Virus record (IMG/VR): IMGVR_UViG_3300021594_000960
Location: 9,156-73,155 of that record
DNA: 64,000 bases
Source of the DNA: a virus
Direction: 5' to 3' (one strand)
The notes under the pieces were generated by a model. That model was not told where the DNA came from, searched no databases, and was given only the letters and a program-made list of their open reading frames with translations. This document shows, piece by piece, positions 27,482 to 44,330 of the stretch (position 1 is its first letter; each line of letters begins with the position of its first letter). The position numbers were made by a program, and so were the translations under genes.

Positions 27482-27515
27482 AGGAATTTTTTTGCAAAGA
27501 TAATTTATTTTATTT

Positions 27516-27544
27516 AAAAAACAAAAGGGGTCTAATGACCCCTT
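27516..27544 (-). terminator. Intrinsic terminator after the 35-aa ORF
   Basis: AAGGGGTC-atta-GACCCCTT then TTGTTTTTT. Confidence 0.75.
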
Positions 27545-27559
27545 CGAATATACAATGCT

Positions 27560-27667
27560 TTAGCAATAGTTTATGGTTCGGGGTATCCTACGTTTCATCA
27601 CCCAAAGGTTCTCATATGAACTTGAAGTTCCCAAAAGACACGTTATTGTATTGTCTAAAATCATCAT
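27560..27667 (-). CDS. Putative leader peptide (35 aa)
   Basis: MMILDNTITCLLGTSSSYENLWVMKRRIPRTINYC*; TATTTAT at 27671-27677; terminator follows. Confidence 0.5.
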   Translation of the reverse strand: MMILDNTITCLLGTSSSYENLWVMKRRIPRTINYC

Positions 27668-27734
27668 GAAATAAATATCATAAATTTTTTTCTTAAATCA
27701 AACTTTTTTGTAACTTTGTTGAAACAAAAAAATT

Positions 27735-28007
27735 ATGCCAAACATAGATTTAGATATAGAAGTATATGAGTTTGTCCGAGCTTGCTCTAAAAGAGACATC
27801 AAAGAATTGATTAAAGAGTTGGTAGATGAGGGACATCTTCCCAAAGACTTGTATTTTAAAAATGGTGAATTAAAAAAAGAAATGAATAGAAAACTCTCAA
27901 GTGAAATTGACTTTGAGGAAAAATTAGATAAACTTAAAACGAAATACTTTTCTTTGAATAAAGATGAAGAAGATTCTTTGGAAAAGATATTTAAGAAACA
28001 TTTATAA
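27735..28007 (+). CDS. Hypothetical protein
   Basis: ORF track; TAACTTTG promoter at 27711-27718. Confidence 0.7.
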   Translation: MPNIDLDIEVYEFVRACSKRDIKELIKELVDEGHLPKDLYFKNGELKKEMNRKLSSEIDFEEKLDKLKTKYFSLNKDEEDSLEKIFKKHL

Positions 28008-28029
28008 ACTGGTATATATTTATAGAAAT

Positions 28030-28125
28030 ATGAAAACTTTGAATCTAAATACGAGAACAAATGCGACAACACCGAATGGTGATGCAGGTGGATTATGCTT
28101 AGGTTCAGAGGCAAGTGGTTGGTAA
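28030..28125 (+). CDS. Leader peptide 1 (31 aa) of tRNA cluster
   Basis: MKTLNLNTRTNATTPNGDAGGLCLGSEASGW*; TATTTAT at 28017-28023; attenuator hairpins. Confidence 0.7.
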   Translation: MKTLNLNTRTNATTPNGDAGGLCLGSEASGW

Positions 28126-28147
28126 TTAAAAACAAAGCCAATAAAAA

Positions 28148-28181
28148 ACCCTGAACCTTGAAAGTTCGGGGTTTTTTTTTT
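28148..28181 (+). terminator. Attenuator terminator 5 nt before tRNA-Pro
   Basis: ACCCTGAAC-cttgaaa-GTTCGGGGT followed by T-tract. Confidence 0.85.
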
Positions 28182-28186
28182 GAATA

Positions 28187-28261
28187 TAGAGTAGTTGACC
28201 AATAGGTAGGTCCCTTGCTTTGGGAGCAAGTGTGTGCAGGTTCGACCCCTGTCTACTCTAC
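28187..28261 (+). tRNA. tRNA-Pro(TGG)
   Basis: TAGAGTA/TACTCTA acceptor; cttgc-TTTGGGA-gcaag. Confidence 0.9.
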
Positions 28262-28273
28262 TTAATTTTAAAA

Positions 28274-28359
28274 ATGCTTCGTTGCCGTAGTGGCCGAACG
28301 GTCCAGACTGTTAATCTGGTGTGTAAAAACCATCGTAGGTTCGAATCCTACCGAAGCAG
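28274..28359 (+). tRNA. tRNA-Asn(GTT) with long variable region
   Basis: TGCTTCG/CGAAGCA acceptor; ccaga-CTGTTAA-tctgg. Confidence 0.88.
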
Positions 28360-28406
28360 CTTTTTTTGAACTCAACAATACTTATAATTAACAACATTTG
28401 TTAATC

Positions 28407-28946
28407 ATGAGTAAGTATTGCGAAAAAATTTTAGAATTGAGGAAAAATGGAATGACGTACAAAGAAATTTCCAATGAATTGAATTGTGCGTTATCCACAG
28501 TCTCTTATCATTGTAAACTTCATAAATTGGGGGGCTCAGATGGTAGGTTGACCGAAGAAGAAAAAATGAGACTACAGAAACTTTATGACCAATTTGGTTC
28601 AATAAAAAAAGTATCTGAAATCACCAAAAATTCTTCGGAAACAATTCTCAAGTATGTGAAAACAAAAAGGAAGAATAAAAAATTAACCGGTTCTGAATCT
28701 GTAATTTTATGGAGAAAAAGAACAAAATTGAAATTGATAGAGTACAAGGGAGGAAAATGTGAGATTTGTGGTTATGATAGATGTGTGAGAGCTTTACAGT
28801 TTCATCATAAAAATCCTGAAACAAAAGATTTTTCTATTTCAGGAAAAAGTCATAGTTTTGTTAAACTGAAATCGGAAGTTGATAAATGTATATTAGTTTG
28901 CTCAAATTGCCATTCAGAAATACATGACGGAATGATTGAAATTTAG
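28407..28946 (+). CDS. HTH + HNH free-standing (homing-type) endonuclease
   Basis: N-terminal HTH; KGGKCEICGY..LQFHH..KCILVCSNCHSEIH; inserted between tRNAs. Confidence 0.85.
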   Translation: MSKYCEKILELRKNGMTYKEISNELNCALSTVSYHCKLHKLGGSDGRLTEEEKMRLQKLYDQFGSIKKVSEITKNSSETILKYVKTKRKNKKLTGSESVILWRKRTKLKLIEYKGGKCEICGYDRCVRALQFHHKNPETKDFSISGKSHSFVKLKSEVDKCILVCSNCHSEIHDGMIEI

Positions 28947-29016
28947 GTCTTATAGTTAATCGGTATAATATCGGCTTGTCGCGCCGAGGTGCGGGGTTCG
29001 ATTCCCCGTGGGACCG
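28946..29016 (+). tRNA. tRNA-Asp(GTC)
   Basis: tcggc-TTGTCGC-gccga; GGTTCGATTCC. Confidence 0.88.
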
Positions 29017-29069
29017 CTGATAGGGTTTGTAGGTTGTAAAACACATTATTGTGTACCCGTATTCAAATT

Positions 29070-29142
29070 GCCTCCTTAGCTCAGCAGGTAGAGCAACTGA
29101 TTTGTAATCAGTAGGTCGTTGGTTCGATTCCGACAGGAGGCT
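29070..29142 (+). tRNA. tRNA-Thr(TGT)
   Basis: GCCTCCT/AGGAGGC; actga-TTTGTAA-tcagt. Confidence 0.95.
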
Positions 29143-29157
29143 CTAAAATTTTAATTT

Positions 29158-29391
29158 ATGCAAGTTTTTTGGACTTATTATTTGATTTGTTTTGCCTATT
29201 GTCTTTTCATGTCTGTTAGAAGATGGAATAGAGATGCAATGGCTGGTGGTCTTGGTATCTCACCTGGTTTGGATACTTTGGGACTTTTAATTATGTGTTG
29301 GATTTTAGCTCCTGTGGATATATTTCTCACATGGGTAAGAGTGTATAAAGAAGCTGAAGAAGCAAGACGAAATAATACAAAAGTATTCTAA
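29158..29391 (+). CDS. Small membrane protein
   Basis: Two hydrophobic segments. Confidence 0.7.
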   Translation: MQVFWTYYLICFAYCLFMSVRRWNRDAMAGGLGISPGLDTLGLLIMCWILAPVDIFLTWVRVYKEAEEARRNNTKVF

Positions 29392-29993
29392 TGACGTACT
29401 CGGACGAATTGAAAGTTTGTTGGTATACACCACAAAGAACCGCCACAAGGACAACACATGTTCTACTCAATGCCATGGGTTTTGTGGGTTTAGGAGCGCA
29501 CTTTTTTAATTTTCCAGAATCAAAAAAAGATTATTTTTTAATTTCTAATATTAGAAATCCGTACACGAGAGTTGTTTCTTTGTTTTCTTTGTATTCGATT
29601 CATAAAAATGATTTCAATTTGAATTTTGAAAAATGGTGTGAATATGCCCTAACAGATAAAAAGTTTGACGGTGATTATCAACTTAGGTATGAGAAAAAAA
29701 TATTAAGTTTGAATAAAAAATTCGATAAGTTTATAAGAGTAGAAAAATTGGACGAAGATTTAAAATCTTTAGGTTTTATCAATTTTGAGGAACCAAAAAT
29801 TCAAGATATTTGGAAAAATAACATCATGAATAATAGGTACACATATGAATTCAAAAATATTGAAAATACCACAAGGACACATTGGTCTGATTTCTACACA
29901 GAAAAACTAGCTGACTTCGTTTACGAAAACTTAAAGGAACAATTTGATTTATTTGGTTACGAAAGAAACTCTTGGAAAAATGGCACATCCTAA
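29391..29993 (+). CDS. Sulfotransferase family 2-like protein
   Basis: PQRTATRT, IRNPYTRVVS, IRVEKLDED, FDLFGY. Confidence 0.8.
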   Translation: MTYSDELKVCWYTPQRTATRTTHVLLNAMGFVGLGAHFFNFPESKKDYFLISNIRNPYTRVVSLFSLYSIHKNDFNLNFEKWCEYALTDKKFDGDYQLRYEKKILSLNKKFDKFIRVEKLDEDLKSLGFINFEEPKIQDIWKNNIMNNRYTYEFKNIENTTRTHWSDFYTEKLADFVYENLKEQFDLFGYERNSWKNGTS

Positions 29994-30333
29994 TTTACAT
30001 GCAAAAAGTTCGGCAAAGAAGTTTGGAGGTAAACCCGAAGATTATATTCATCTACATGAATGGTTAGATGAAACCAAAGGTTGGTTTGGTGATTCTTTAC
30101 ATCGTATGTTTAGACACCATTCAGAAGGTATTTTCGAAATGGAAAAAAGGTTTGGAAAAGAGTTCAAAAACAGCGATGGTAAAACGGTTTATACTAGGTA
30201 TGTTGGAGAACAACATGTGAAGGAGGATTGTAATAATTATATCCCATCAGCCAAAGAATGGGTAAATAATATAACAAGTAACACACGACCAAGTTGGATG
30301 ATTAAAACAATAAAATTAGAGTTTGAAGACTGA
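29980..30333 (+). CDS. DUF6915-like protein
   Basis: MAHPNLHAKSSAKKFGGKPEDY..HRMFRHH..GEQHVKED. Confidence 0.8.
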   Translation: MAHPNLHAKSSAKKFGGKPEDYIHLHEWLDETKGWFGDSLHRMFRHHSEGIFEMEKRFGKEFKNSDGKTVYTRYVGEQHVKEDCNNYIPSAKEWVNNITSNTRPSWMIKTIKLEFED

Positions 30334-30346
30334 TATTTATAACATT

Positions 30347-31057
30347 ATGAGCAAAATACTAACATCAGAAGAAAAAAAATACTTACAGAGAATTTGTAGA
30401 TACTTGGGTTCATTAGGAATGAACCATGGTAGTATTGATTTCGAAATGGAATATGGTGAATTTGATACTAATGACTATAATTGGAACCGTATTACTCATT
30501 TCTCTAACAATTATACTGCGGAAATTCCTGACGGATTAAAAGAAATCTGTAAAAAACTGCTCAAGTATGTTGAAGAAAACGATTTAATTAATAATCCAGA
30601 TGTCGAAAATTTAAACTGGGAACGAATTGAAATCGATGTTGATTGTGACGAGTCAACAATCTCTGTTGTTCATGATTATAATTACTTCGAAGCTAGTGAT
30701 ACTGAGTCAGTCACAAGAAGTTTGGAAGAAGATGGTGACGATGAAAGCTTAATGGAAGTGTTTGATGTTTTGGAAAATGATGATGAAATTGATGAAAGAG
30801 TTCTAAGAATTGATTATAACGGTAGTGGTGATAGCGGATACTTAGAAGACGCCTTTGATAATATAGGGGTCGATGTGCCAGCACAAGTTCAAGATTACTG
30901 TTATGGTATTTTAGAAAGTAATTTTGGTGGTTGGGAAATTAACGAAGGCTCACAAGGATATTTTGAAATTGATTTAGATAGAAAAGAAATTACTCTCTAT
31001 CACACATCCAATCTTGATGAAACAGGAAGAGATACTGTTTTTGAAGAAGACTTCTAA
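30347..31057 (+). CDS. DUF6878-like protein
   Basis: YNGSGDSG...GWEINEGSQG. Confidence 0.75.
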   Translation: MSKILTSEEKKYLQRICRYLGSLGMNHGSIDFEMEYGEFDTNDYNWNRITHFSNNYTAEIPDGLKEICKKLLKYVEENDLINNPDVENLNWERIEIDVDCDESTISVVHDYNYFEASDTESVTRSLEEDGDDESLMEVFDVLENDDEIDERVLRIDYNGSGDSGYLEDAFDNIGVDVPAQVQDYCYGILESNFGGWEINEGSQGYFEIDLDRKEITLYHTSNLDETGRDTVFEEDF

Positions 31058-31099
31058 ATTATTTGTTTTTTTAATCCAAATCCCTTATTTTTGTATTAT

Positions 31100-31186
31100 A
31101 CCTTGGTGGCGAAATCGGTATACGCGCAAGACTTAAAATCTTGTGGACAGAAAATGTCCGTGTGGGTTCAAGTCCCACCTGAGGTA
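31100..31186 (+). tRNA. tRNA-Leu(TAA)
   Basis: caaga-CTTAAAA-tcttg; variable arm; TATTTTTG promoter at 31086-31093. Confidence 0.9.
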
Positions 31187-31262
31187 GGCGTAACGGTAGC
31201 CGCGTTGGTCTTAGGAACCAATGACTTCGGTCGTGAGAGTTCGAGTCTCTCTTGGGGTACCA
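31187..31262 (+). tRNA. tRNA-Leu(TAG), 5' acceptor strand missing
   Basis: ttggt-CTTAGGA-accaa; ends in ACCA; D-arm begins right after the previous tRNA. Confidence 0.8.
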
Positions 31263-31271
31263 ATAGAACAT

Positions 31272-31985
31272 ATGTATATTCAAAGTCCATTAGTCCCAAC
31301 GGGTGTTAATAACATTTATCATTTAGCACCAATCCCTGTATTCATGAAAGTCTTTAATGACCATGAATTACATGATGAAGTTTTTCAATTAGGTTTAGAT
31401 GTCCTGAGTCCCGCTCAGAAAAAAATGGGTCAAGAACTACCTGAGGTCTATGATGCTCAGAGACAAGAAAAATATGAAGTAAATTATAACCGTCAGGATA
31501 TGTGGGTTGAACCAACTGAGTACAACCCCATCGGTAGTCGATTTTGGACCCCGCCAAACGATTTTCTCGATAGACCTGATACTTGTGTACAAATTATAAA
31601 AGACAGGTGTAAAAACGGTTATATGGAGTTATTAGACTCCTTAAATTTTGTACACAAAAGAAACCCAAAAATAACTGAGTCTTGGATTCAATATTACAAC
31701 CCCACAGAAGGTAGAGGTCATAACCAACATAATCATTGTCGTTGGTCTCCTGATGAAGAAACTGTATTGAATTTTGTGGGTGGTTATTATCTTTCAGACG
31801 GTAACCCAATAAAAGACCATCCTTACAGTGGTGTTTTTACGTTTCACATCAGAGGTATGTCTTATTTCATTCGACCGAAAAAAGGTATGCTCATGATTTG
31901 GCCTTACGATATTGTACATTCTGTGAAACCATTTTATGGTGAAACACAGAGATGTGTTATCAATTTCAATATTCAGGACATATAA
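31272..31985 (+). CDS. Putative 2OG-Fe(II) oxygenase (TIGR02466-like)
   Basis: ESWIQYY..HNQHNH..GGYYL..PKKGMLMIWPYDIVHSV..RCVINFN. Confidence 0.85.
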   Translation: MYIQSPLVPTGVNNIYHLAPIPVFMKVFNDHELHDEVFQLGLDVLSPAQKKMGQELPEVYDAQRQEKYEVNYNRQDMWVEPTEYNPIGSRFWTPPNDFLDRPDTCVQIIKDRCKNGYMELLDSLNFVHKRNPKITESWIQYYNPTEGRGHNQHNHCRWSPDEETVLNFVGGYYLSDGNPIKDHPYSGVFTFHIRGMSYFIRPKKGMLMIWPYDIVHSVKPFYGETQRCVINFNIQDI

Positions 31986-32036
31986 ATTATTTGTTTTTAA
32001 AAAACTTTTACTATATTTGTAGTAATTATAATAACA

Positions 32037-32117
32037 ATGAGAACACAGGTGCAACATATTGTCTACAGTCATCAACAAGAGATTTGTTGGATTAAGACAC
32101 GCCCTGTAGTCTCGTGA
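32037..32117 (+). CDS. Leader peptide 2 (26 aa) of tRNA cluster
   Basis: MRTQVQHIVYSHQQEICWIKTRPVVS*; TATATTTG promoter at 32012-32019; attenuator hairpins. Confidence 0.7.
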   Translation: MRTQVQHIVYSHQQEICWIKTRPVVS

Positions 32118-32150
32118 GAAGCCTATAATTCCTGAAGAGTTATATATAAG

Positions 32151-32191
32151 ACCTCGAACTACAGAAATGAAGTTCGGGGTTTTTTCTTTTT
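32151..32191 (+). terminator. Attenuator terminator
   Basis: ACCTCGAACT-acagaaatga-AGTTCGGGGT followed by T-tract. Confidence 0.85.
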
Positions 32192-32201
32192 GGGACTTTT
32201 G

Positions 32202-32217
32202 GTTCTTTGAAGTATTG
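32202..32217 (+). promoter_or_regulatory. boxA-like antitermination element
   Basis: GTTCTTTGAAGTATTG resembles rrn boxA (TGYTCTTTRA). Confidence 0.55.
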
Positions 32218-32321
32218 CTGAACATGTTTTGAGTCAATATGGTTTATTGATTTCTAAGGGAGGGTATGAAAGAGAAGTGAATTGGGATAGGTTAGAAGAA
32301 TTAAAAAAAGAAATTAAATAA
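32214..32321 (+). pseudogene. C-terminal gene fragment without a start
   Basis: IAEHVLSQYGLLISKGGYEREVNWDRLEELKKEIK* fused directly to the boxA-like element. Confidence 0.5.
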
Positions 32322-32335
32322 AGTAAGATTATTAG

Positions 32336-32410
32336 GGTCAGTTGGTCGAGTGGTTTAGGCGGTAGTCTGCAAAACTATTTACACAGGTTCGATTCCTGTA
32401 CTGACCTCCA
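32336..32410 (+). tRNA. tRNA-Cys(GCA)
   Basis: gtagt-CTGCAAA-actat; U73 then CCA. Confidence 0.93.
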
Positions 32411-32413
32411 CAA

Positions 32414-32486
32414 TGGAATGTAGCTCAGCTGGTAGAGCACTATTCTGATACGATAGTTGTCGGCGGTTCGAGCCCGCCCATTCCAA
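32414..32486 (+). tRNA. tRNA-Ile(GAT)
   Basis: TGGAATG/CATTCCA; ctatt-CTGATAC-gatag. Confidence 0.9.
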
Positions 32487-32500
32487 CAAAATAAAATGTT

Positions 32501-33025
32501 ATGAGACGTAAAATCATTTTTATCGATGTAGATGGACCACTGGCATGGGGAACATGGGGTGACGGTAGAGTTACGCTCAACGAAGCTTCTAAGACCTTCA
32601 CAATCCCTTATCCATGGGTTCAGGAGGACTGCCAAGCATTACAAAAAATTTGTAACGAAACAAATGCGTCTTTGGTTGTAAGTTCAGATTGGAGAAAACA
32701 CTTTAGTATAATTCAACTCAAAAGAATTTTTCAATACTATGGTGTAACCGCACCGATTGTAGACATTACAACTCATCAGTACCTTTGGAACAAAATGAGT
32801 AGACCATCTATAGAATGGGAGAGAGCCGCAGAAATCACAAAGTGGGTTAAGGACAACAAAATCACCAATTGGATTTCAATTGATGATATGAAACTTGATG
32901 AACAATACAAGTGGTTGAAACCAAGAATTCCAATGTGGAGACACGTACAGGTAGATGGTGATTGGGGTCACGGCGGAAGACTAAGAGACAAAATTGATGA
33001 ATGTATAAAAAAATTAGAACGATGA
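32501..33025 (+). CDS. HAD domain protein (Swiss Army Knife RNA repair type)
   Basis: IFIDVDG, VVSSDWR, ERAAEI, ISIDD. Confidence 0.85.
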   Translation: MRRKIIFIDVDGPLAWGTWGDGRVTLNEASKTFTIPYPWVQEDCQALQKICNETNASLVVSSDWRKHFSIIQLKRIFQYYGVTAPIVDITTHQYLWNKMSRPSIEWERAAEITKWVKDNKITNWISIDDMKLDEQYKWLKPRIPMWRHVQVDGDWGHGGRLRDKIDECIKKLER

Positions 33026-33309
33026 AAAAAAGATTATCATTAGAACAGAAGAGAGAAAAAATGGTCGTTGATATGATTAATAAAATGTTCGAAATCGCAG
33101 GACATTCAGTAACATACGATGATGTTAAAGACCGTAAAGATGATTGGTATACTCAATGGACTATGACTGTCGAACAAAACGATGAGTGGAAAGATTGGGG
33201 TCAGAAATACCTCATCAAAGAACTCAAAATGAATAAGAAGTATGCTGAAACTCAAATGGGGATGATTTCCTTAATGTGGGGATTAAAGTTTAGTAATTTC
33301 AATTTATAA
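33022..33309 (+). CDS. Hypothetical protein
   Basis: ATGA overlap. Confidence 0.7.
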   Translation: MKKRLSLEQKREKMVVDMINKMFEIAGHSVTYDDVKDRKDDWYTQWTMTVEQNDEWKDWGQKYLIKELKMNKKYAETQMGMISLMWGLKFSNFNL

Positions 33310-33325
33310 AGCGTAAATTTGTGAT

Positions 33326-33880
33326 ATGAAAATCAATAGAGCGGATTTGTTATGGTTCCTGAGTAACATCCGAAGAAAACAAGAAGGAAAAGAACTTACT
33401 GACGAAATGCTAGTTGACCATATGGCACATTATATGGAGGCAAATCCGAGATGTGTTGATATGCAAGGTGTTAGTACACCAGGTAGGTTCAGTTATTCTA
33501 CTGTTGGATATGGTGTATTCAGTTTGATGGGTGAGAAGTATAGAATGGGTAGGATTGAAATATTCGACAGAGAAAGTGATAGCGGATATCAAGTGTCTGA
33601 GGGAATCTATACAATGCCTTATGAAGCGGCAAGTCAATTTGAAGATTTTATCGAATCTTTGGAAACTGACCTACCAATAAACATCGAAATAGGTTCTCAT
33701 GGATGGTGTGAAGAGGAATGCGCAAAATCTTTGGGTTTTGAAAACACTGAAGCTATGAGAGACCCTGAAAACGTAAAAAAGTATCAAAGAATGAAAAACG
33801 ATGAATATGCACGTGAACAAGGGTATGAAGATTGGGACGACCTATTAGCTAAAAGTAAGTGGACAAAAAAACAAGGATAA
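33326..33880 (+). CDS. Hypothetical protein
   Basis: ORF track; TAAATTTG at 33314-33321. Confidence 0.7.
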   Translation: MKINRADLLWFLSNIRRKQEGKELTDEMLVDHMAHYMEANPRCVDMQGVSTPGRFSYSTVGYGVFSLMGEKYRMGRIEIFDRESDSGYQVSEGIYTMPYEAASQFEDFIESLETDLPINIEIGSHGWCEEECAKSLGFENTEAMRDPENVKKYQRMKNDEYAREQGYEDWDDLLAKSKWTKKQG

Positions 33881-34293
33881 TGAAAGTTGTAATCGTAAGT
33901 GGATATTTCAATCCTGTCCATAAAGGACATATTGAATACTTTATCAAATCAAAAGAACATGGAGACAAACTCTATGTGATTGTGAATAACGATTTTCAAC
34001 GTGAGTTGAAAGGAAGTAAAAAGTTCCAAGATGAGGACGAGAGATTGGTAATTATCGATAGTTTAAAGATGGTAGATAAAACTATACTATCTATCGATAA
34101 AGACAGAACGGTTCGTGAGACGTTAAGAATGATTGCCTCTGAGGTTGAAGAAAACGTAGAGTTGTTTTTTGCAAACGGAGGAGACCAAAATAACGACACA
34201 ATACCTGAAAAACCAATCTGTGATGAATTGGGTATCAAACTGGTTGACGGTTTGGGAGACAAGATTCAGTCCTCATCTTGGTTATTAAAATAA
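33880..34293 (+). CDS. Cytidylyltransferase-like (HIGH family)
   Basis: SGYFNPVHKGH, FANGGD, KIQSSS. Confidence 0.9.
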   Translation: MKVVIVSGYFNPVHKGHIEYFIKSKEHGDKLYVIVNNDFQRELKGSKKFQDEDERLVIIDSLKMVDKTILSIDKDRTVRETLRMIASEVEENVELFFANGGDQNNDTIPEKPICDELGIKLVDGLGDKIQSSSWLLK

Positions 34294-34299
34294 TAAAAA

Positions 34300-34372
34300 G
34301 CGTGCGTAGCTCAATTGGTAGAGTACTAGTCTCCAAAACTAGGAGTTTCAGGTTCGAGTCCTGACGTGCGTG
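34300..34372 (+). tRNA. tRNA-Trp(CCA)
   Basis: ctagt-CTCCAAA-actag. Confidence 0.92.
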
Positions 34373-34374
34373 CA

Positions 34375-34464
34375 AAATGTAAACTTCAGTACCCACACAG
34401 TGGTGAGACGGGCTAAGTTAGATACGATTCCTCGGAGCTGGGAGTAGAATGCTGAAGAACATTT
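34375..34464 (+). ncRNA. Unknown structured RNA A
   Basis: AAATGT..CTTCAGTA / TGCTGAAG..ACATTT closing stem; GC-rich interior. Confidence 0.5.
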
Positions 34465-34465
34465 A

Positions 34466-34601
34466 TAGGTTGATTGGGGAATGGTGAAACTAATGACTCG
34501 AGAGTGTATTTCGGTCAGTTTCATCGGAGTTGGGAGAAATACACCTGAGTAATGCCAATCGTAAAAGGAGTTGTCCACGCAACCATCTTCTCCTTTCCTT
34601 A
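34466..34601 (+). ncRNA. Unknown structured RNA B with possible pseudoknot
   Basis: GATTGG/CCAATC, GTGTATTTC/GAAATACAC, GGTGAAACT/AGTTTCATC, AAGGAG/CTCCTT. Confidence 0.6.
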
Positions 34602-34605
34602 ATTT

Positions 34606-34687
34606 GGGAGTATCGCCTAGTGGCAATGGCAGAAGACTGTAAATCTTCCCTCTTTCGAGTTCGTTGGTTCGAGTCCAGCTACTCCCA
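34606..34687 (+). tRNA. tRNA-Tyr(GTA)
   Basis: gaaga-CTGTAAA-tcttc; variable arm. Confidence 0.93.
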
Positions 34688-34690
34688 CAA

Positions 34691-34750
34691 AATGATTGAA
34701 GTCCTGAGTGGTATCGGGAGGAAGTAACACAACCAAGTGTAACAATCATT
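34691..34750 (+). ncRNA. Unknown structured RNA C (three-way junction)
   Basis: AATGATTG/CAATCATT enclosing TCCTGA/TCGGGA and ACAC/GTGT hairpins. Confidence 0.5.
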
Positions 34751-34753
34751 TAT

Positions 34754-34827
34754 GGACCCCTAGCTCAGTAGGTTAGAGCAAATGACTCATAATCATTAGG
34801 TCCACGGTTCGAGCCCGTGGGGGTCCA
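34754..34827 (+). tRNA. tRNA-CAT (probably Ile2, or elongator Met)
   Basis: aatga-CTCATAA-tcatt; paired 1:72; no initiator GGG/CCC. Confidence 0.9.
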
Positions 34828-34829
34828 CA

Positions 34830-34904
34830 AGACAGACACACGCTTCCCATGGTGTTAAAGTACAAGGATAATGAAGAGAATAATACGTCTCCTTAGGTCT
34901 GTCT
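34830..34904 (+). ncRNA. Unknown tRNA-sized RNA D
   Basis: AGACAGAC/GTCTGTCT 8-bp terminal stem, 75 nt, no T-loop. Confidence 0.45.
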
Positions 34905-34909
34905 GAAAT

Positions 34910-34980
34910 TGTCGTATGGTGTAACGGTAACACAACAGATTTTGGTTCTGTTTTTCAAGGTTCGAATCCTTGTGCGACAA
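34910..34980 (+). tRNA. tRNA-Gln(TTG)
   Basis: acaga-TTTTGGT-tctgt. Confidence 0.92.
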
Positions 34981-34985
34981 CATAT

Positions 34986-35059
34986 GGTGGACGTAGCTTA
35001 GTTGGTAGAGCACTAGCTTGTGGCGCTAGTTGTCGTGGGTTCGAATCCCACCGTTCACA
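34986..35059 (+). tRNA. tRNA-His(GTG)
   Basis: ctagc-TTGTGGC-gctag; encoded G-1, A73. Confidence 0.92.
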
Positions 35060-35064
35060 CACGA

Positions 35065-35149
35065 GGAGAGTTGCCTGAGTGGTTAAAGGAGCGGTTTACT
35101 AAACCGTGGTCGGGTAACTGACCCGCTGGTTCGAATCCAGCACTCTCCG
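35065..35149 (+). tRNA. tRNA-Ser with ACT anticodon
   Basis: GGAGAGT/ACTCTCC-G; gcggt-TTACTAA-accgt; long variable arm. Confidence 0.9.
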
Positions 35150-35189
35150 CACTTTTTTTAACCTACTAGTTGACGATTTAGAAAACTTG

Positions 35190-35240
35190 GCGGCTGTTGT
35201 TGTAGACACTACTGCTGTTAAGGTAGAAGAAGTTAAATAA
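35190..35240 (+). pseudogene. C-terminal gene fragment
   Basis: AAVVVDTTAVKVEEVK* with high-expression codons, no ATG, followed by a terminator. Confidence 0.45.
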
Positions 35241-35262
35241 TATTACTTTTTCTTACAAAACT

Positions 35263-35290
35263 AAAAACCCATCTTTCGATGGGTTTTTTT
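35263..35290. terminator. Bidirectional terminator closing the tRNA cluster
   Basis: AAAAACCCATC-tttc-GATGGGTTTTT. Confidence 0.85.
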
Positions 35291-36608
35291 ATTTTAATAA
35301 TCTTTTAATTTTCTCGATATTCTCATTAAGTTTTTCATCTTCTTCATTTCTTTCTTTTTTGAAAAACTTTGCAACTTTTTTAAAAGGAGCTTTAATTGCG
35401 TCTATAACGAATGGGTCGGTTTGTTTTTTCTCACCTGTTTCTGCCCATCTTTTTTGAGTCATTTCCCCTGTTTTTTTATCGTATCTATTTTTGAATATTT
35501 CAAAAGGTGCTAAAATTAATGATGCCATAGCAGGGTCAGTATAAGACCTTGTGTTAGTTTGGGTTACATTTTCTACTTCATCATCTCCTCTGTATGTTGG
35601 TTTTTTTCTTTTTGTTTTTTTCTCAGAATAACTTCTCTCAAATTCTTTAGTATTCAAATTTTCTCTATGATATGAGCGATTCAACAACAAAACTTCAGCA
35701 ATATCATTTTTATCCATAGAACCTATCACTTGTCCTTCAGACACCGATTCACCGTCTCTAACTCTTGGCTTTGTAACTCCACAATATTGTAAAAAATACC
35801 CCATCTCAACAGATTCGATTGTAATTTGATTTTTACAACCTGATATTTTTTTCATGTTATTAATCACCCCATCAACAGGACTTTTTATTACTGAATTTGA
35901 TGAACCAGGTATTGATATTGTTCCATATCTTCCTGATACATTACTTCCGAAAGATTCATTCAATCCGATTAATTTACCAAGACCCAAAGCAGCTTTGAAC
36001 AATTCAGGGTCCGAGTTATAACTACTACTACCCCCACCGTAAGGCTTAGAACCTTTTTTTTCTTTATCAGAAGTATTTGTCTCGGTTGAAGAATCAGTTT
36101 GTGTTGTAGAATCTGAACTTGAGTTCTGAATAGGGTCTACACTATAGTTTCCACCTGAGTATTTTTCTACAGTCCATTTTATCAATTCCGTGATAGTGTT
36201 TTTGTCTCCACTTATATCTACACCAGCACCTACAGGAGGCTCTCCTTCAAAGGTTTTGTAGTGAAAACTGTGTTTTGTGTGAACATCATCAACTTTACCA
36301 TTTGGGTCTCTTTTAGCATAAGGGTTTTCTGTTGTTCTCAAACCCATTTCGTGGGCTTTATCAATAACGTCCATAGCAACATCTCGATTTGTGAAACCGA
36401 TGTGTAAGTGGTTATCATGGTTATTCCAAGTTATACCATCTACTTTTCTACCACCATCAAAACCAAAACCTACGGTTCCGCCTTTTTTTGTTGCGGGGTT
36501 ATAAACTAATTCGTCGATACCTGAGATGTCGGCTTCAGAAAATACCATTTTCTTATTCTCAAGAATGATATCGTAAATTCTGTTTATGTTTTTTAGTTCT
36601 CTACTCAT
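35289..36608 (-). CDS. Protein with degenerate M23 peptidase-like domain (probably virion-associated)
   Basis: IKSPVDGVI, VRDGESVSEGQVIG; N-terminal HDNHLHIGF and HTKHSFH..GVDI. Confidence 0.65.
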   Translation of the reverse strand: MSRELKNINRIYDIILENKKMVFSEADISGIDELVYNPATKKGGTVGFGFDGGRKVDGITWNNHDNHLHIGFTNRDVAMDVIDKAHEMGLRTTENPYAKRDPNGKVDDVHTKHSFHYKTFEGEPPVGAGVDISGDKNTITELIKWTVEKYSGGNYSVDPIQNSSSDSTTQTDSSTETNTSDKEKKGSKPYGGGSSSYNSDPELFKAALGLGKLIGLNESFGSNVSGRYGTISIPGSSNSVIKSPVDGVINNMKKISGCKNQITIESVEMGYFLQYCGVTKPRVRDGESVSEGQVIGSMDKNDIAEVLLLNRSYHRENLNTKEFERSYSEKKTKRKKPTYRGDDEVENVTQTNTRSYTDPAMASLILAPFEIFKNRYDKKTGEMTQKRWAETGEKKQTDPFVIDAIKAPFKKVAKFFKKERNEEDEKLNENIEKIKRLLK

Positions 36609-36656
36609 TAGTTATAAATATTGATGGTGGAATAAAAAAAACCGAGAATATCTCGG

Positions 36657-36986
36657 TTATCTGTTTGAACTATAATTCAATACTTTTTTACCCGTAGTTT
36701 CAACTTCTTTTTTTTCAACTATAGGTTTTGGTTCGATAGGAAGTACTACTTTTTTCTTTTTTTCAACTTCTTTTACTAATCCGAATTTAACCCATTTATA
36801 CCAAACTCTTTCATGAATATAATATTGAATTGGTTTATACAACAATTCAACTACACCAAATGCTGCACCAACTTTCACACTTCCTGATGCCCACCACATA
36901 GCGAGAAAACCTATACCTGTACTTACTACTCTGTAACTTATTGTTTTTGCTAAGTGTCTTTTGTACGAAACTTTAATTTGACTCAT
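36657..36986 (-). CDS. DUF2061 membrane protein
   Basis: RHLAKTISYR...YYIHERVW. Confidence 0.85.
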   Translation of the reverse strand: MSQIKVSYKRHLAKTISYRVVSTGIGFLAMWWASGSVKVGAAFGVVELLYKPIQYYIHERVWYKWVKFGLVKEVEKKKKVVLPIEPKPIVEKKEVETTGKKVLNYSSNR

Positions 36987-37368
36987 ATTTGTCTATCTTA
37001 GGAGGACCATCGAGGGTTTTAAATCCCATGTTCCTTTCTAAATTTATTCCAACAGCCCTATCAAGTTCAGGTTGCTCGGGGTCTTTATCATTAAGAATAA
37101 CTCTCGTTCCCCTACCACAATCCATAACAAGTTGATGATATTGGACTCCAATTTTTTTCAACTCATCAATGGTGTAGTCTCTGTAAGATTCTGGACGTGC
37201 TGTAGTTATAATTATCACAGCACCAGATTTGTGCTGTTCGTTGATGTAATCAACAACTTCTTTGATTGGAGTCAGAATTGCTGTTGCCAACTCATTAAAT
37301 TTCCTGTATACAACCAATGTTCCATCAATATCGACGAAAAAGGTAGGGTTTTTTGTTACTTTGCTCAT
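36973..37368 (-). CDS. HAD-superfamily phosphatase-like protein
   Basis: FVDIDGTL, ITTARP, LND. Confidence 0.85.
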   Translation of the reverse strand: MSKVTKNPTFFVDIDGTLVVYRKFNELATAILTPIKEVVDYINEQHKSGAVIIITTARPESYRDYTIDELKKIGVQYHQLVMDCGRGTRVILNDKDPEQPELDRAVGINLERNMGFKTLDGPPKIDKYESN

Positions 37369-37372
37369 ATTG

Positions 37373-37445
37373 AGCGGAAGACCAGGTTCGAACTGGCTAC
37401 CCCCGACTTGGAAGGACGGTGCTCTACCAAATGAGCTACTTCCGC
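37373..37445 (-). tRNA. tRNA-Gly(TCC)
   Basis: GCGGAAG/CTTCCGC; CTTCCAA loop. Confidence 0.92.
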
Positions 37446-37450
37446 TTAGG

Positions 37451-37639
37451 TTATTCGGGTTCTTTTTCCATCAGAATCCACAACATAAGATAGGTGAAAA
37501 TAACTGGAAGTGGACTCCATATTGCAGCGAAACATAAAATTTTGACCAATAGTGGTTCAATTTCAAAATAATTGGCAAGACCTGTACATACGCCAGCCAA
37601 TGTTCCATTTTTACTTCTGTATAATTTTTTCTTTTCCAT
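37451..37639 (-). CDS. PspC domain protein
   Basis: LYRS...LAGVCTGLANYF...YLMLWILM. Confidence 0.9.
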   Translation of the reverse strand: MEKKKLYRSKNGTLAGVCTGLANYFEIEPLLVKILCFAAIWSPLPVIFTYLMLWILMEKEPE

Positions 37640-37644
37640 AGTTC

Positions 37645-37732
37645 AAAAAAAAGTGGTCAGGGACTGATGGGATGCTATACCTCGGAGTCGACTTCTTTTC
37701 ACCGCTGCAGTCAGTTACATCAGTATGACCAC
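37645..37732 (-). ncRNA. Unknown structured RNA E ending in a U-tract
   Basis: GTGGTCA-t-ACTGATG ... CATCAGT-ccc-TGACCAC-T8. Confidence 0.55.
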
Positions 37733-37738
37733 CACTCG

Positions 37739-37831
37739 TTAAAATGTAACATTATCGCCAGGTTCCCATTCTTCTTCTTCCTTGGGAATATTTGGGTCAA
37801 GTTCTACCTCAACATTCAAAAAAAACGACAT
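37739..37831 (-). CDS. Small acidic ORF (30 aa), possibly a fragment
   Basis: MSFFLNVEVELDPNIPKEEEEWEPGDNVTF*. Confidence 0.4.
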   Translation of the reverse strand: MSFFLNVEVELDPNIPKEEEEWEPGDNVTF

Positions 37832-37872
37832 GAATTTTAACGTTTTATTATTTTTTCAAATATAATACAATT

Positions 37873-38064
37873 TTAAGTATTCTCAAAATTGATTTTGTTC
37901 ATTTCTTCGATTGATAATCTTTCCATCTTCCATTCTAACCACACATTCATATCTTTGAGTTGTTCCAAAGTGTTTTCATGAATTAAAATAAAACCTTCGG
38001 GTGCCACACCATCAAACTTTGAAATTGTACCACGTTCTTGAAGGATTTTTTTGATATCAACCAT
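37873..38064 (-). CDS. Hypothetical protein
   Basis: ORF track; TACATTTG at 38069-38076. Confidence 0.65.
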   Translation of the reverse strand: MVDIKKILQERGTISKFDGVAPEGFILIHENTLEQLKDMNVWLEWKMERLSIEEMNKINFENT

Positions 38065-38082
38065 AAAACAAATGTAAAAAAA

Positions 38083-38709
38083 TTACTTTTCATAACCAAA
38101 AAGTTCGAATTGATTTTTCATAAAATTATAAATTAATTCTTTATTCCTTTCAGTCAAGAATTTTTCTTTTTCTACTTTGAATCTATTTTCGTTTATTTTT
38201 TTTTGTAGAATTTCTTGTAATACTCCTGATTTATTCAAATTCGAGTCTTTCACAAATGGAATTTTCATATAATCATCATAAAGGTTCTCTAAATGAATTA
38301 TATAAGTTGGATTGATGTCTTCAGGTATTATGTACATTGGGTTCAATTTTTCAATTGATATAGTTACGTGATTATAAAAATCTTCAGGTGTGGGGGGTTC
38401 TTGTTTTGTCCAAGTAAATAAAAATCTCGATAAGAACCTATCATAAGGGTTTCTTATGGTCATTATTATTTTGGGTTCATTTGTATTGGGTGGTAAATAA
38501 AAACTATGAACTGTTGATATAGCAGGATTGGCAAACTCAGTGTTCGTTTCTAAATTTCTTGTGTATGTTTGAAAATCAAAATAAGTGAATATCCAAGAAG
38601 CTGTTACGGTTCCAGACTTCATTGGTAGTATCAAATAAAAATCAAAAGTTTTTGAATATATATAATTTTCCCACCTCATATTTATATCTATATAATTTTC
38701 CCCCCTCAT
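38083..38709 (-). CDS. Sulfotransferase family 2-like protein
   Basis: PMKSGTVT, IRNPYDRFLS, IHLENL, FELFGY. Confidence 0.8.
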   Translation of the reverse strand: MRGENYIDINMRWENYIYSKTFDFYLILPMKSGTVTASWIFTYFDFQTYTRNLETNTEFANPAISTVHSFYLPPNTNEPKIIMTIRNPYDRFLSRFLFTWTKQEPPTPEDFYNHVTISIEKLNPMYIIPEDINPTYIIHLENLYDDYMKIPFVKDSNLNKSGVLQEILQKKINENRFKVEKEKFLTERNKELIYNFMKNQFELFGYEK

Positions 38710-38729
38710 ATTTATATCTATATAATTTT
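38661..38729. repeat. 30-bp tandem duplication (2.3 copies) over a gene start
   Basis: TATAATTTTCCC(A/C)CCTCATATTTATATCTA. Confidence 0.9.
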
Positions 38730-38768
38730 AGTCGAAAGACATAAATTTTAAACCCAAATATATGGACG

Positions 38769-38993
38769 ATGCAAATAAACAGGGAAACGTGGCAGAAAAC
38801 TCTAAAAGAAAATCTGTCTCAAATATTTTTAATGTTGGCTCTGTTCTTCAATCCGTTTGGATTCGATGCCGTTCAATATTCCCTAATACTTTGGACAGGA
38901 AGTTTATGGAAAGCGAACTTCGTTTTGTATTGTATTGCGGGGCTTTTCTTTGGTTTATATATATACTTTCGAAGATTATCTAAAGTGCCTTGA
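38769..38993 (+). CDS. Small membrane protein
   Basis: Hydrophobic; FFNPFGFD motif. Confidence 0.7.
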   Translation: MQINRETWQKTLKENLSQIFLMLALFFNPFGFDAVQYSLILWTGSLWKANFVLYCIAGLFFGLYIYFRRLSKVP

Positions 38994-40458
38994 GCTTCCC
39001 CTCTTTGAAGGCATTGAAGTTTGGACCTTTTATTAAAAGGAAATCTTTTCCAACTTTTCTATAACCTAAAATTCCTGCGTTTTTTGCAGCCGCGAAGAAT
39101 GACGAGTGTTGACCTCTCAAATCACGAGGTTTCATTACAAATCCGTCTTTAGTTCTTTTGTACATTGTCTTACCATCTTTAGTAATTTTGTTTAAAAATC
39201 CTATATCTGTAAGGAAATCAAGTTTTGTTCCTATTTTACCTGATTCTAAGAACTTCACAAGTTTTTCAATCCAACCTTTTTTCCTACCAAAAGTGTAACC
39301 ATACGATGGTCTAAAAAAACTTGATGTACCAACAATCTTTTCTCTGAGTTTGGTACTTTTTTTAACTTCATCTAAACACCTACTCGAAATGTAAGACCTA
39401 ACTCCCTCTGCAGTGCTTCCTATTGTGTCCATTATTTTAAACTTTACATCAATTCCAAAATTTTCCAAACCCAAATCGATAAAATAGTCTTCCTCGATGT
39501 GATTGTCTAAACCCATGAAACCAATACTCGCTTCAAAATATTCTTTATTAGTTGACTTGAAAGTTACAAAAACCTGATATTCGTCAATCAGAACGTTATC
39601 CAATACTACAGCCAAACTTGCTTCAGTGTGGCCTGGTCCCAAATCGTTTATACCTTGAAAACCCTCAATAACTACACTTAATTCTGATTCAGTTCCAAAT
39701 AGTTTTTTATCACTTCTTTTTGTTACACCGAATGAATTGAAAATTTCATTTAAACGTTTTTCTTCAGCTGAGACTTTAAAAGTTTTATAATTTTCTTCTA
39801 TGGCATCTATAATCTCAGGAAATGCGTATTTGAATATTGCGATTTCTCTTTCTCCCATCGGAGAATCTTTGGAATCCCAAAATTTGGGATAACCTGAATT
39901 ATCAAAATGAATTGCAACTTTCGAATAATCTTTGTCTGTTGAATTAGCTTTATTGATTATGTAATACAAAGCCTGACTTCCTGACGTGTAACGCTGAAAA
40001 TGGTCAGGTGATTGAGCTGTGGTACACCATTTAGTGTTGGAACCGTACTTACAAGACGCACCGTGAGATTTCGGTAAAACAACCAAAAATTTATCGTCCT
40101 CGTAAACTTTTTCTACCTGATTTTCTGATTCCTTTTTTTTCTTTTTTTCTCTGATGTATAGAATAACTTTCTCAAGTTCATTTAAAGACACGTATTGATT
40201 TATATCTTTTTTCGGAAGTTGAGATTGGTATTTGTCGAAATCCTTTATTAAATCAACTAGTTTTTCTAATTCGAAAGTGTCTAGTTCTCCATCACCGTCT
40301 GTATTTTTTAATACAAAGTCAGTGTATTTGTGGTTGAAATCTTGTAAATCGGAAATGTTAAGAATAAACTCTAAATCCTCTTCATTGAATTTAGTTGAAT
40401 ATTTTTTTCTTAAATCTTCTTTACGACCTTCCTTTAATAAAATTGAGAAAAACTTCAT
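38980..40458 (-). CDS. Hypothetical protein with YG-x-T-x-WCT (PcfJ-like) domain
   Basis: KDINQY, ASCKYGSNTKWCTT, LYYII. Confidence 0.75.
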   Translation of the reverse strand: MKFFSILLKEGRKEDLRKKYSTKFNEEDLEFILNISDLQDFNHKYTDFVLKNTDGDGELDTFELEKLVDLIKDFDKYQSQLPKKDINQYVSLNELEKVILYIREKKKKKESENQVEKVYEDDKFLVVLPKSHGASCKYGSNTKWCTTAQSPDHFQRYTSGSQALYYIINKANSTDKDYSKVAIHFDNSGYPKFWDSKDSPMGEREIAIFKYAFPEIIDAIEENYKTFKVSAEEKRLNEIFNSFGVTKRSDKKLFGTESELSVVIEGFQGINDLGPGHTEASLAVVLDNVLIDEYQVFVTFKSTNKEYFEASIGFMGLDNHIEEDYFIDLGLENFGIDVKFKIMDTIGSTAEGVRSYISSRCLDEVKKSTKLREKIVGTSSFFRPSYGYTFGRKKGWIEKLVKFLESGKIGTKLDFLTDIGFLNKITKDGKTMYKRTKDGFVMKPRDLRGQHSSFFAAAKNAGILGYRKVGKDFLLIKGPNFNAFKEGKLKAL

Positions 40459-40474
40459 ATGGTATAAATACCAA

Positions 40475-40825: not shown

Positions 40826-40903
40826 GTCTAAATTATAATAAAAATTAAGTAAATAAAAAACCCCCATCCGAAGATGAGGGTTAATTAATTTTATTGATAG
40901 AAA

Positions 40904-44191: not shown

Positions 44192-44210
44192 GTTTTTTTT
44201 GTTTATTGGT

Positions 44211-44330
44211 TTATAAATAAAAAAATCCCGTGGGTATAAGCCGACGGGACTTTGCTATTCGCGAAGTTAAGTTCGTGTACAGGTAATAAAAATTTTTCAT
44301 AAAATTCCTCTCCAAAAAATAAGTATTCAT
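44211..44330 (-). other. Possible leader ORF running through a terminator upstream of the TonB receptor
   Basis: MNTYFLERNFMKNFYYLYTNLTSRIAKSRRLIPTGFFYL*; hairpin TCCCGT..ACGGGA-T7 at 44219-44249. Confidence 0.35.

Follow-up and report, generated by a model that had tools for sequence, protein, structure and literature searches.

The DNA analyzed here, hereafter the window, is a stretch of 64,000 nucleotides (nt) comprising bases 9156-73155 of a 73-kb IMG/VR virus contig with an estimated completeness of 24%. Relatives found via neighboring genes include contigs of 317-321 kb, and the window therefore derives from a jumbo phage. ARAGORN predicts 15 transfer RNA (tRNA) genes and a transfer-messenger RNA (tmRNA) in the window, the tRNA array being split into clusters that are preceded by a short open reading frame (ORF) and an intrinsic terminator. 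The second of these modules, leader 2, is the subject of this study as a candidate transcription attenuator. The first genes after it are tRNA-Cys(gca) and tRNA-Ile(gat) (32336-32487, plus strand; ARAGORN and Rfam), followed on the same strand at 32501-35288 by the rest of the unit, which consists of four ORFs, tRNA-Trp, Tyr, Met, Gln, His, and Ser (34300-35150), and a terminator (35263-35288).

Leader 2 is preceded by a Bacteroidota-type promoter (TTTG, 18 nt, TATATTTG; 31990-32019, plus strand), an exact match to the Bacteroidota consensus (-33 TTTG and -7 TAnnTTTG, the latter box placed at -12 to -5) as given in excerpts of PMC6847099 and PMC9723704, from which a transcript start near 32024 is predicted. 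The motif TTTG-N17-21-TAnnTTTG was observed 13 times in the window against 4.2 expected, a number reached in 0/100 shuffles, and two of its matches lie directly 5' of tRNA-Leu (31062-31093) and, on the minus strand, directly 5' of the tmRNA (44827-44857). It is also enriched in the relative L006 and in the cultured phage phi4:1, and exact matches in relatives span a boxA-like stretch behind the leader-2 terminator (see below). The phage appears to use ordinary host-type promoters that do not differ from the sigma-A promoters of Bacteroidota. Since the promoter type matches, the host is probably a member of the Bacteroidota, this match being the sole basis for the assignment.

The leader-2 ORF (32037-32117, plus strand; taken from the ORF list) begins 18 nt downstream of the promoter and has 26 codons (MRTQVQHIVYSHQQEICWIKTRPVVS), including four for Val, two for Arg, and one each for Glu and Lys, as counted in an earlier note on this DNA. 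Relative to its ATG, A residues stand at -3, -6, -12, and -13, positions at which A is a positive determinant of initiation in Flavobacterium (PMC6847099, in excerpt), and the ORF is presumably translated. All motifs that the earlier note had laid out along the leader were recovered where it had put them. Region 1 (CTACAG, 32063-32068, plus strand) can pair with CTGTAG (32104-32109), the first part of region 2 (CTGTAGTCTCG as read at 32104-32114, plus strand). Region 2 is the antiterminator strand; it occupies the last four codons before the TGA stop (32115-32117) and pairs with CGAACTACAG (32155-32164), while GTTCTTTGAAGTATTG (32202-32217) lies behind the terminator. Between regions 1 and 2, an inner hairpin CAACAA-GAGAT-TTGTTG (32073-32089, plus strand) encodes QQEICW and has a stem that is invariant in 9/9 aligned sequences; that it acts as a pause hairpin is a guess. 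Between the stop codon and the terminator, the folds show a small spacer hairpin (UAUAAUUC-CUGAA-GAGUUAUA; 32124-32144, plus strand). This spacer segment (TCCTGAAGAGTTATATATA) is identical in 9/9 aligned sequences, a conservation that exceeds that of the ORF.

Regions 3 and 4 make up the intrinsic terminator, which together with its T-run occupies 32148-32191 (plus strand) and was recognized by its fold and its conservation in relatives. Its stem (32148-32183) has a G+C core at 32152-32179 and is followed by the T-run (32180-32191); a consensus terminator scan missed it because of an outer loop of more than 8 nt. The terminator fold has an energy of -18.4 kcal/mol and a z of -4.66 (0/200 shuffles as good), and the fold of the entire 206-nt region has a z of -3.60, again equaled by 0/200 shuffles. 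The helix between regions 2 and 3 (2:3 helix) drawn in the earlier note does form in the minimum-energy fold once region 4 is left out, with -15.8 kcal/mol (2/200 shuffles as good). The domain formed by regions 1 and 2 (1:2 domain) reaches -24.0 kcal/mol in the window. The corresponding energies in the relative L010 are -26.5 (1:2 domain), -19.9 (2:3 helix), and -19.5 kcal/mol (terminator).

Leader 2 has matching loci in 29 relatives, of which 11 representatives were aligned; the remainder are identical or near-identical to one of these 11, and L044 was not aligned. The ATG is invariant in 11/11 sequences, the frame is open in all of them, and the QQEICW core is kept in 9/11. The loop of the inner hairpin varies (GAGAT, GAAAT, or TCGAT). 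Exact copies of an 18-mer from the inner hairpin occur in 17 viral contigs, which are all among the records already found, so that this search adds no lineage. The terminator is conserved among relatives, and the consensus helix that RNAalifold returns for nine sequences is the antiterminator, not the terminator. In alignment A5, the 11-pair antiterminator helix (columns 68-78 with 120-130) is paired in 93.9% of 99 cells, a value that 0/500 shuffles reach, against 23-38% for slid controls, and two of its pairs have changed on both sides. These two-sided exchanges, CG to GC and UA to CG, separate the clade of the window from the clade of L010.

The helix between regions 1 and 2 fared less uniformly. 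The pairing proposed in the earlier note can form and is kept within the clade of the window (4/9 sequences, with 152/500 shuffles as good), but it is specific to that clade and absent from the minimum-energy fold, in which region 2 of the window is paired with the first ~16 nt of the ORF. An alternative register (columns 12-18 with 70-76) has 77.8% of its cells paired and a covariation score reached by 1/500 shuffles, but the window itself fits it poorly. The partner of region 2 in the L010 clade is GAACUAC at codons 4-6. Every minimum-energy fold has region 2 sequestered by the 5' third of the ORF, through partners that differ between clades.

Region 2 lies within the last three or four codons in both leader-2 clades and ends 0-2 nt 5' of the stop codon. 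In leader 1 and in the leaders of L035, L061, and L066, it ends 15-18 nt 5' of the stop codon, which corresponds to the edge of the ribosome footprint. A 2-nt deletion in L041 shifts the reading frame and leaves the region-2 nucleotides unchanged, which argues that this stretch is constrained as RNA.

The sister module, leader 1, is found at 28030-28180 on the plus strand. Its ORF (MKTLNLNTRTNATTPNGDAGGLCLGSEASGW; 28030-28125) stands before tRNA-Pro/Asn/Asp/Thr, and its terminator (28143-28177), detected by the terminator scan, has a 3' arm (AGTTCGGGGTTTT) in common with leader 2. The leader-1 antiterminator GGTTCAG/CTGAACC is paired in 41/41 cells with two pairs changed on both sides, and a third two-sided change, in leader 1 of L066, is masked by an alignment gap. 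Leader 1 gives a full-length match to the Rfam family Thr_leader (RF00506) with 33.9 bits and an E-value of 0.0022, below the 55-bit gathering cut-off. Leader 2 matches neither this family nor any other in Rfam at E<=1, and no T-box match at this threshold occurs anywhere in window 27500-36000.

The amino acids of both leaders follow the tRNA genes behind them. We sorted the leader residues of each genome by which of its two tRNA clusters serves them; counts were made by hand, initiator Met was excluded, and Arg residues were divided by their codons, with AGA counted for Arg(tct) and CGN for Arg(acg). The ratio of cluster 1 to cluster 2 residues in the window is 15/4 for leader 1 and 3/14 for leader 2 (chi-square 13.5). 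The same ratios are 23/9 and 5/20 in L006 (chi-square 15.1), 21/9 and 7/22 in L066 (12.4), and 20/6 and 10/22 in L061 (12.0); these four genomes are related and hence do not make four independent tests, their leaders having diverged to roughly 30-60% identity. Uninterrupted runs occur as well: residues 6-23 of leader 1 in L004 (DLTNLLRPTTPNTGDAGR) belong 18/18 to the eight amino acids that its cluster 1 serves, and residues 8-20 of leader 2 in L006 (KVYSKQQEICWFK) 13/13 to those of its cluster 2. Phe in leader 2 coincides with a tRNA-Phe in the cluster in 10 of the 12 different pairings of a leader with a tRNA set, L005 and L020 being the exceptions, and L003, whose cluster 1 lacks tRNA-Asp and tRNA-Ala, has NGGTG where its relatives have NGDAG.

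A further case is provided by tRNAs that the window itself no longer carries. The earlier note had predicted that the leader codons without a matching tRNA (Val, Arg, Glu, and Lys) belong to genes lost at a junction near 32217. This junction is real: in a blastn search with window positions 32012-32335 against the fetched loci, 18 alignments stop exactly at 32217, and none of the 29 matching loci extends past it despite 118 nt more query. The closest relatives, L006-L009, in which the neighboring HAD protein is 93% identical, have the order leader, tRNA-Glu(ttc), Val(tac), Phe(gaa), Lys(ttt), Cys, Ile, four ORFs, Trp, Tyr, Met, Gln, Arg(acg), His, and Ser. When the sequences are aligned directly, everything between GAAGTATTG and tRNA-Cys is missing from the window, which has 118 unrelated bases instead (32218-32335, plus strand), in place of a -7 box and tRNA-Glu/Val/Phe/Lys. 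These 118 nt have no counterpart in the whole records of five relatives, where matches do not exceed chance level (best match 21 nt, E 0.0014). Three of the four predicted tRNAs, Glu, Val, and Lys, are thus found at the junction in syntenic relatives; the fourth, Arg(acg), does belong to cluster 2 but sits between Gln and His and not at the junction, and the tRNA-Phe located there had not been predicted. Because such phages usually have a tRNA for almost every amino acid, the informative part of this result is the placement of the tRNAs in cluster 2. The window has also lost Arg(tct) between two Leu genes, Arg(acg), and the Gly and Ala genes of cluster 1. Its phage is a tRNA-poor variant in which the replacement at 32217/32218 removed the -7 box and tRNA-Glu/Val/Phe/Lys, and its leader still has codons for the removed tRNAs.

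More distant relatives have one array and one leader. The leader of L035 has 52 amino acids (aa) and contains all 20 amino acids, with tRNAs for 20/20; that of L037 is also 52 aa long and contains all 20, with tRNAs for 19/20 (no Val); and the 38-aa leader of L012 contains 19 amino acids, with tRNAs for 20/20. Shorter leaders are found in L030 (30 aa, without Cys and Phe; tRNAs for Val, Phe, Lys, Cys, and Ala missing) and L040 (27 aa, without Ala, Gln, and Ser). The L040 leader has all 12 amino acids with a called downstream tRNA, and none of the tRNAs downstream serves Ala, Gln, or Ser. The fit between leader and tRNAs is poorer in L027 and L017. By eye, regions 2, 3, and 4 change together in L035, L030, and L037 (GTTAGAGG / CCTCTAAC / GTTAGGGG), and the corresponding regions read GTCAGGG / CCCTGAC / GTCGGGG in L012; regions 2 and 3 read GTTAAGG / CCTTAAC in L017 and CAGGGG / CCCCTG in L040. 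In L035, L030, L027, and L012, the first tRNA follows directly 3' of the T-run.

An independent case is found in Cellulophaga phage phi4:1 (L107; host Cellulophaga baltica), a cultured phage that surfaced only via a tRNA-sized match and whose leaders have no sequence in common with those of the window. It has two identical copies of the promoter (L107 3627-3658 and 4569-4600; six observed occurrences of the motif against 0.56 expected), and each is followed by a short ORF, a terminator and, at once, a tRNA sub-array. Leader A (MKIQRLHLQELEQPIISGGTGV) is followed by Pro, Glu, Gln, His, Leu(tag), Leu(taa), and Arg(acg); its residues 4-14 use solely the six amino acids of those tRNAs, and all six of them, with CGT as the Arg codon. 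Leader B, read from a GTG start (VQLTKTGITVIDKTKGARAYLGDTVIG), is followed by Ala, Lys, Ile, Gly, Met, Asp, Thr, Val, Arg(tct), Met, and Tyr, after which come Ser, Asn, Trp, and Phe. The tRNAs that follow serve 23/26 of its post-start residues, a run of 17 consecutive residues uses only, and all, nine non-Met amino acids of the first 11 tRNAs, and its Arg is encoded by AGA, in agreement with Arg(tct). Counted by hand against the two sub-arrays, leader A has a ratio of 11/10 and leader B one of 3/23 (chi-square 9.3). Both modules form an antiterminator in their minimum-energy folds once region 4 is left out. The gp076 gene of phi4:1, a 33-codon ORF before tRNA-Ser, was considered as a leader and not counted, as no terminator lies behind it.

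We consider it probable that leader 2 is a ribosome-dependent transcription attenuator ahead of a phage tRNA operon, with the leader serving as a panel of test codons for the downstream tRNAs. The attenuation put forward in the earlier note is supported by comparison, given the conserved and covarying antiterminator and terminator, the invariant ORF start, the position of region 2 in the last codons, and the leader residues that track the tRNAs. From the promoter motif, the ORF, the terminator, the covarying alternative helix, and the match between leader residues and tRNAs, all of which can be read in the sequences, we infer translation, stalling, conditional termination, and feedback. Host RNA polymerase would start transcription from the promoter at 31990-32019, and a ribosome would translate the 26-codon leader. 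If all codons are decoded fast, the ribosome at the stop codon would cover region 2 (32104-32114), the terminator at 32148-32191 would form, and transcription would end. If a tRNA is scarce, the ribosome would stall earlier and leave region 2 free to pair with region 3, so that no terminator forms and the polymerase reads through into tRNA-Cys, tRNA-Ile, the RNA-repair genes, and tRNA-Trp to tRNA-Ser. The phage tRNAs would then relieve the stall and close the gate again, a feedback on tRNA supply. Leader-peptide attenuation has been reported for amino-acid operons of Flavobacterium (PMC9723704, in excerpt).

The general form of this proposal is that Bacteroidota phages control their tRNA arrays by such codon-panel leader mini-ORFs coupled to a terminator/antiterminator switch, sense decoding capacity, and make tRNAs and RNA-repair enzymes on demand, with leaders that co-evolve with their arrays; we hold this to be somewhat more probable than its negation. 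Host tRNA decay or cleavage by an anticodon nuclease would be examples of triggers that lower decoding capacity. The patterns of leaders and arrays described above agree with it, as a split array has two leaders dividing the amino acids, a single complete array has one leader with 19-20 of them, and leaders of reduced length have no Cys and Phe, or no Ala, Gln, and Ser, in arrays without those tRNAs.

Several observations weigh against this interpretation. All support for it is comparative inference. L044 has no leader ORF and retains the second promoter described below, so that the module is dispensable; the L010 clade is without leader 1, and L038 is without a leader. Tyr codons occur in leaders of the L010 clade, which has no tRNA-Tyr, Ala occurs in leader 1 of L061 in the absence of a tRNA-Ala, and the leader of L027 has many residues without a matching tRNA. 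The chi-squares were calculated by hand on ORFs and tRNA sets picked post hoc and on relatives that are not independent of each other. The presence of all 20 amino acids in a 52-residue leader, tried as a strong argument, proved only mildly unusual, since 15 control ORFs of 49-55 residues contain 14-19 kinds of amino acids, none of them 20 and several 19. The start of leader B in phi4:1 is uncertain: downstream of the predicted transcript start, the GTG at L107 4623 is the first canonical start codon to occur, and the record annotates an upstream TTG. Each amino acid occurs only 1-4 times in a leader, and the sensitivity to any single tRNA is therefore expected to be lower than in the trp and his leaders.

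A further objection comes from a consensus promoter behind the terminator. All ten aligned leader-2 relatives have an invariant TTTG, 19-20 nt, and an invariant TAnnTTTG that ends 4-10 nt 5' of tRNA-Glu or Val, and 8/10 of these -7 boxes also fit the stricter TAHHTTTG given in excerpts of PMC6847099; the second promoter of L006 is one of four strict matches in 12.5 kb, against 0.72 expected. This promoter bypasses the terminator, and in the closest relatives the attenuator can thus add to tRNA transcription and not fully gate it. The window retains a remnant (32198-32217, plus strand), comprising the -33 TTTG and the spacer, with an 18-mer that occurs nowhere else in the window, but has lost the -7 box. 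On the plus strand at 32019-45910, a search for the strict promoter motif found none, weaker promoters being possible. With this and the loss of the -7 box, the leader promoter is the only recognizable source of transcription in the window for tRNA-Cys, tRNA-Ile, the four ORFs, and tRNA-Trp to tRNA-Ser.

An alternative built on this second promoter, which we regard as unlikely, is that the leader is a separate small gene or small RNA unit and that its terminator insulates the second promoter, the actual source of the tRNAs. It would agree with the ten relatives just described, with L044, which lost the ORF and kept the tRNA promoter, and with the TAnnTTTG found 3' of the leader-1 terminator in 4/6 sequences. 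It does not account for residues that follow the tRNA sets in two unrelated phage groups or for an antiterminator that covaries with the terminator. Moreover, because the first tRNA abuts the T-run, no second promoter can fit in six modules (L035, L030, L027, L012, and phi4:1 A and B), and the window has lost its own -7 box.

The same stretch was interpreted in the earlier note as a boxA, by which host Nus antitermination would carry the polymerase through the cluster. According to this alternative, GGTTCTTTG would also act as a boxA, and NusB/NusE loaded on read-through transcripts would take the polymerase through the untranslated tRNA array. The resemblance itself is genuine: GGTTCTTT matches 7/8 core positions of the rrn boxA, with U at position 3 where Aquifex and E. 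coli have C. The core was taken from the Aquifex 12-mer, from which E. coli differs at positions 1, 6, and 9 (PMC3177189, in excerpt); a search for 16S genes in the record of the window gave no locus from which the boxA of the host could be taken. Like the rrn and lambda boxA elements that act with NusB-NusE, the element lies immediately 3' of a terminator, where an untranslated RNA operon begins, and it is transcribed solely from the leader promoter. Its core is kept in 7/11 aligned sequences; in the other four (L015, L020, L036, and L061) it is disrupted, whereas the -33 and -7 boxes on either side never vary, and the element coincides with the spacer of the conserved promoter. Leader 1, the single-leader relatives, and phi4:1 have no such element behind their terminators. 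With one mismatch allowed, the 9-mer has 42 occurrences in the window, mostly within genes, and a rough hand estimate puts the chance of a 7/8 match within ~35 nt at a few percent. A function as boxA is accordingly improbable in our judgment, and this element is probably a misread promoter.

A third possibility, which we rate as highly unlikely, is an untranslated structured RNA switch, in which a factor other than the ribosome (a protein, or a tRNA bound directly as in T-boxes) chooses the fold and the ORF is incidental. The conservation is indeed largely at the RNA level, as seen in the invariant hairpin stems and in region 2, which is kept across the frame shift of L041. Nevertheless, the ATG is invariant, the frame is open in 11 lineages, the initiation context is favorable, and the match between residues and tRNAs resides in the reading frame. 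T-box riboswitches resemble the modules described here in sensing tRNA status and in switching between terminator and antiterminator before translation-related genes, but a T-box binds one uncharged tRNA directly and without translation, whereas the signal here is in an ORF and no T-box match was obtained. That the ORF encodes a small functional peptide, with the conserved QQEICW as its core and the hairpin as its ordinary terminator, is scarcely tenable, since QQEICW is encoded by the two arms of a hairpin with a variable loop, the remaining peptide varies freely with a changed frame at the C-terminus in L041, and the motif is not shared by the leaders of phi4:1 or of the single-leader phages.

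Attenuation thus remains the preferred reading, and its closest known counterparts are the attenuators of amino-acid operons (trp, his, thr, ilv; RF00506). They share with leader 2 a short ORF, an intrinsic terminator, an exclusive antiterminator, an upstream segment that sequesters region 2, and a placement of the ORF that lets the ribosome pick the fold, and leader 1 has the weak full-length Thr_leader match mentioned above. The modules described here differ in being viral, in regulating tRNAs and RNA-repair genes instead of biosynthetic enzymes, in having a panel of 8-20 amino acids that mirrors the array instead of a run of a single codon, and in that the sensed product, tRNA, is the product of the operon itself. 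The ilv leader is multivalent, and the multi-amino-acid leader found here recalls it. The attenuator of pheST, which encodes phenylalanyl-tRNA synthetase, has a Phe-rich leader, senses one amino acid, and controls the synthetase. It is similar in that a leader peptide responding to tRNA availability attenuates a gene of the translation apparatus; the modules described here would differ in sampling many tRNA species and in controlling the genes for the tRNAs. To our knowledge, the regulation of phage tRNA genes is essentially undescribed, and full-text literature searching, at the level of titles and abstracts, returned no description of leader-peptide attenuation of phage tRNA genes.

Several other features of the unit and its surroundings were recorded. 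Two of the ORFs behind leader 2 (32501-33025 and 33859-34293) encode an RNA-repair 'Swiss Army Knife' HAD protein (HAD_SAK_2, E 8.8e-20) and a cytidylyltransferase-like protein; their presence in the operon suggests that tRNA repair is co-regulated with tRNA supply. The tRNA-Ser of the window (35065-35150) has the anticodon ACT (A34), as in L011, L012, and L035, whereas most relatives have GCT; the leader Ser codon AGT would be its exact cognate. An RNA-library contig of 1512 nt belonging to a relative (X16, record 5) spans 32216-33360 with ~200 extra letters at the junction and, by its variant letters, also spans the leader from about 32060. This contig has leader and downstream genes on one assembled molecule and, as DNA carry-over is possible, is at most a weak hint of a joint transcript.

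Further observations concern the tRNA arrays. At 31099-31262 of the window, ARAGORN's tRNA-Leu(taa) and tRNA-Leu(tag) overlap by 11 nt. The second of these genes matches the Rfam model with 27.9 bits over model positions 9-63, and relatives have tRNA-Arg(tct), sometimes with an ORF, between their two Leu genes; it is probably a 5'-truncated remnant of a deletion. In L005 (about 5755-5910), the 5' part of tRNA-Phe is fused to the 3' part of tRNA-Cys with Lys deleted, a hybrid that ARAGORN calls 'Cys' and that looks like the result of recombination between tRNA genes. An ORF with similarity to helix-turn-helix and HNH endonuclease proteins lies between tRNA-Asn and tRNA-Asp (28398-28946), and relatives have other small ORFs at varying positions in the array. 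The tRNA arrays look like hot spots of mobile insertion and deletion. The phage tmRNA (44414-44806, minus strand; tag AEEATVVA) has a consensus promoter directly upstream and is placed at the head of the tRNA array in relatives. In L040, a tRNA-like sequence directly after the leader terminator (about 4186-4260) was not called by ARAGORN; by eye it has the anticodon GTT (Asn) and a poor T-arm and, if real, would explain the four Asn codons of the leader. L012, L027, L030, and L035 have a conserved stretch of ~45 nt (ending ...GACTTGACGTGGCGTATTTTGAA) 5' of the leader, located in L027 after a tRNA-like T-arm, which may be the 3' end of another RNA gene. The stretch at L107 6608-6877 in phi4:1 looks structured, and ARAGORN gives a doubtful permuted tmRNA over 6517-7178.

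With regard to distribution, at least 90% of the sampled words of 29400-34300 are present in 15 DNA runs from freshwater or lakes. RNA-library runs, covered as assembled contigs, contain only small shares of these words. A megablast search for cultured close relatives gave tRNA-sized matches only, and tblastn with the HAD protein gave only distant matches in Shewanella and Vibrio phages (<35% identity). Phage C48C1, tried as a comparison, is a cyanophage with a single tRNA and was set aside as irrelevant.

The finding addresses the question of why phages carry tRNA genes and how these are used. The correspondence between leader and array predicted tRNAs of a deleted array and may be used for annotating arrays and their losses, and since the same design occurs in a cultured phage-host pair, Cellulophaga baltica and phi4:1, it is testable. 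If true, leader-peptide attenuation would be extended from amino-acid metabolism to tRNA genes, and an attenuator that responds to decoding speed would make tRNA supply a self-regulating viral circuit, tying the tRNA arrays and RNA-repair genes of these phages to the depletion of host tRNAs.

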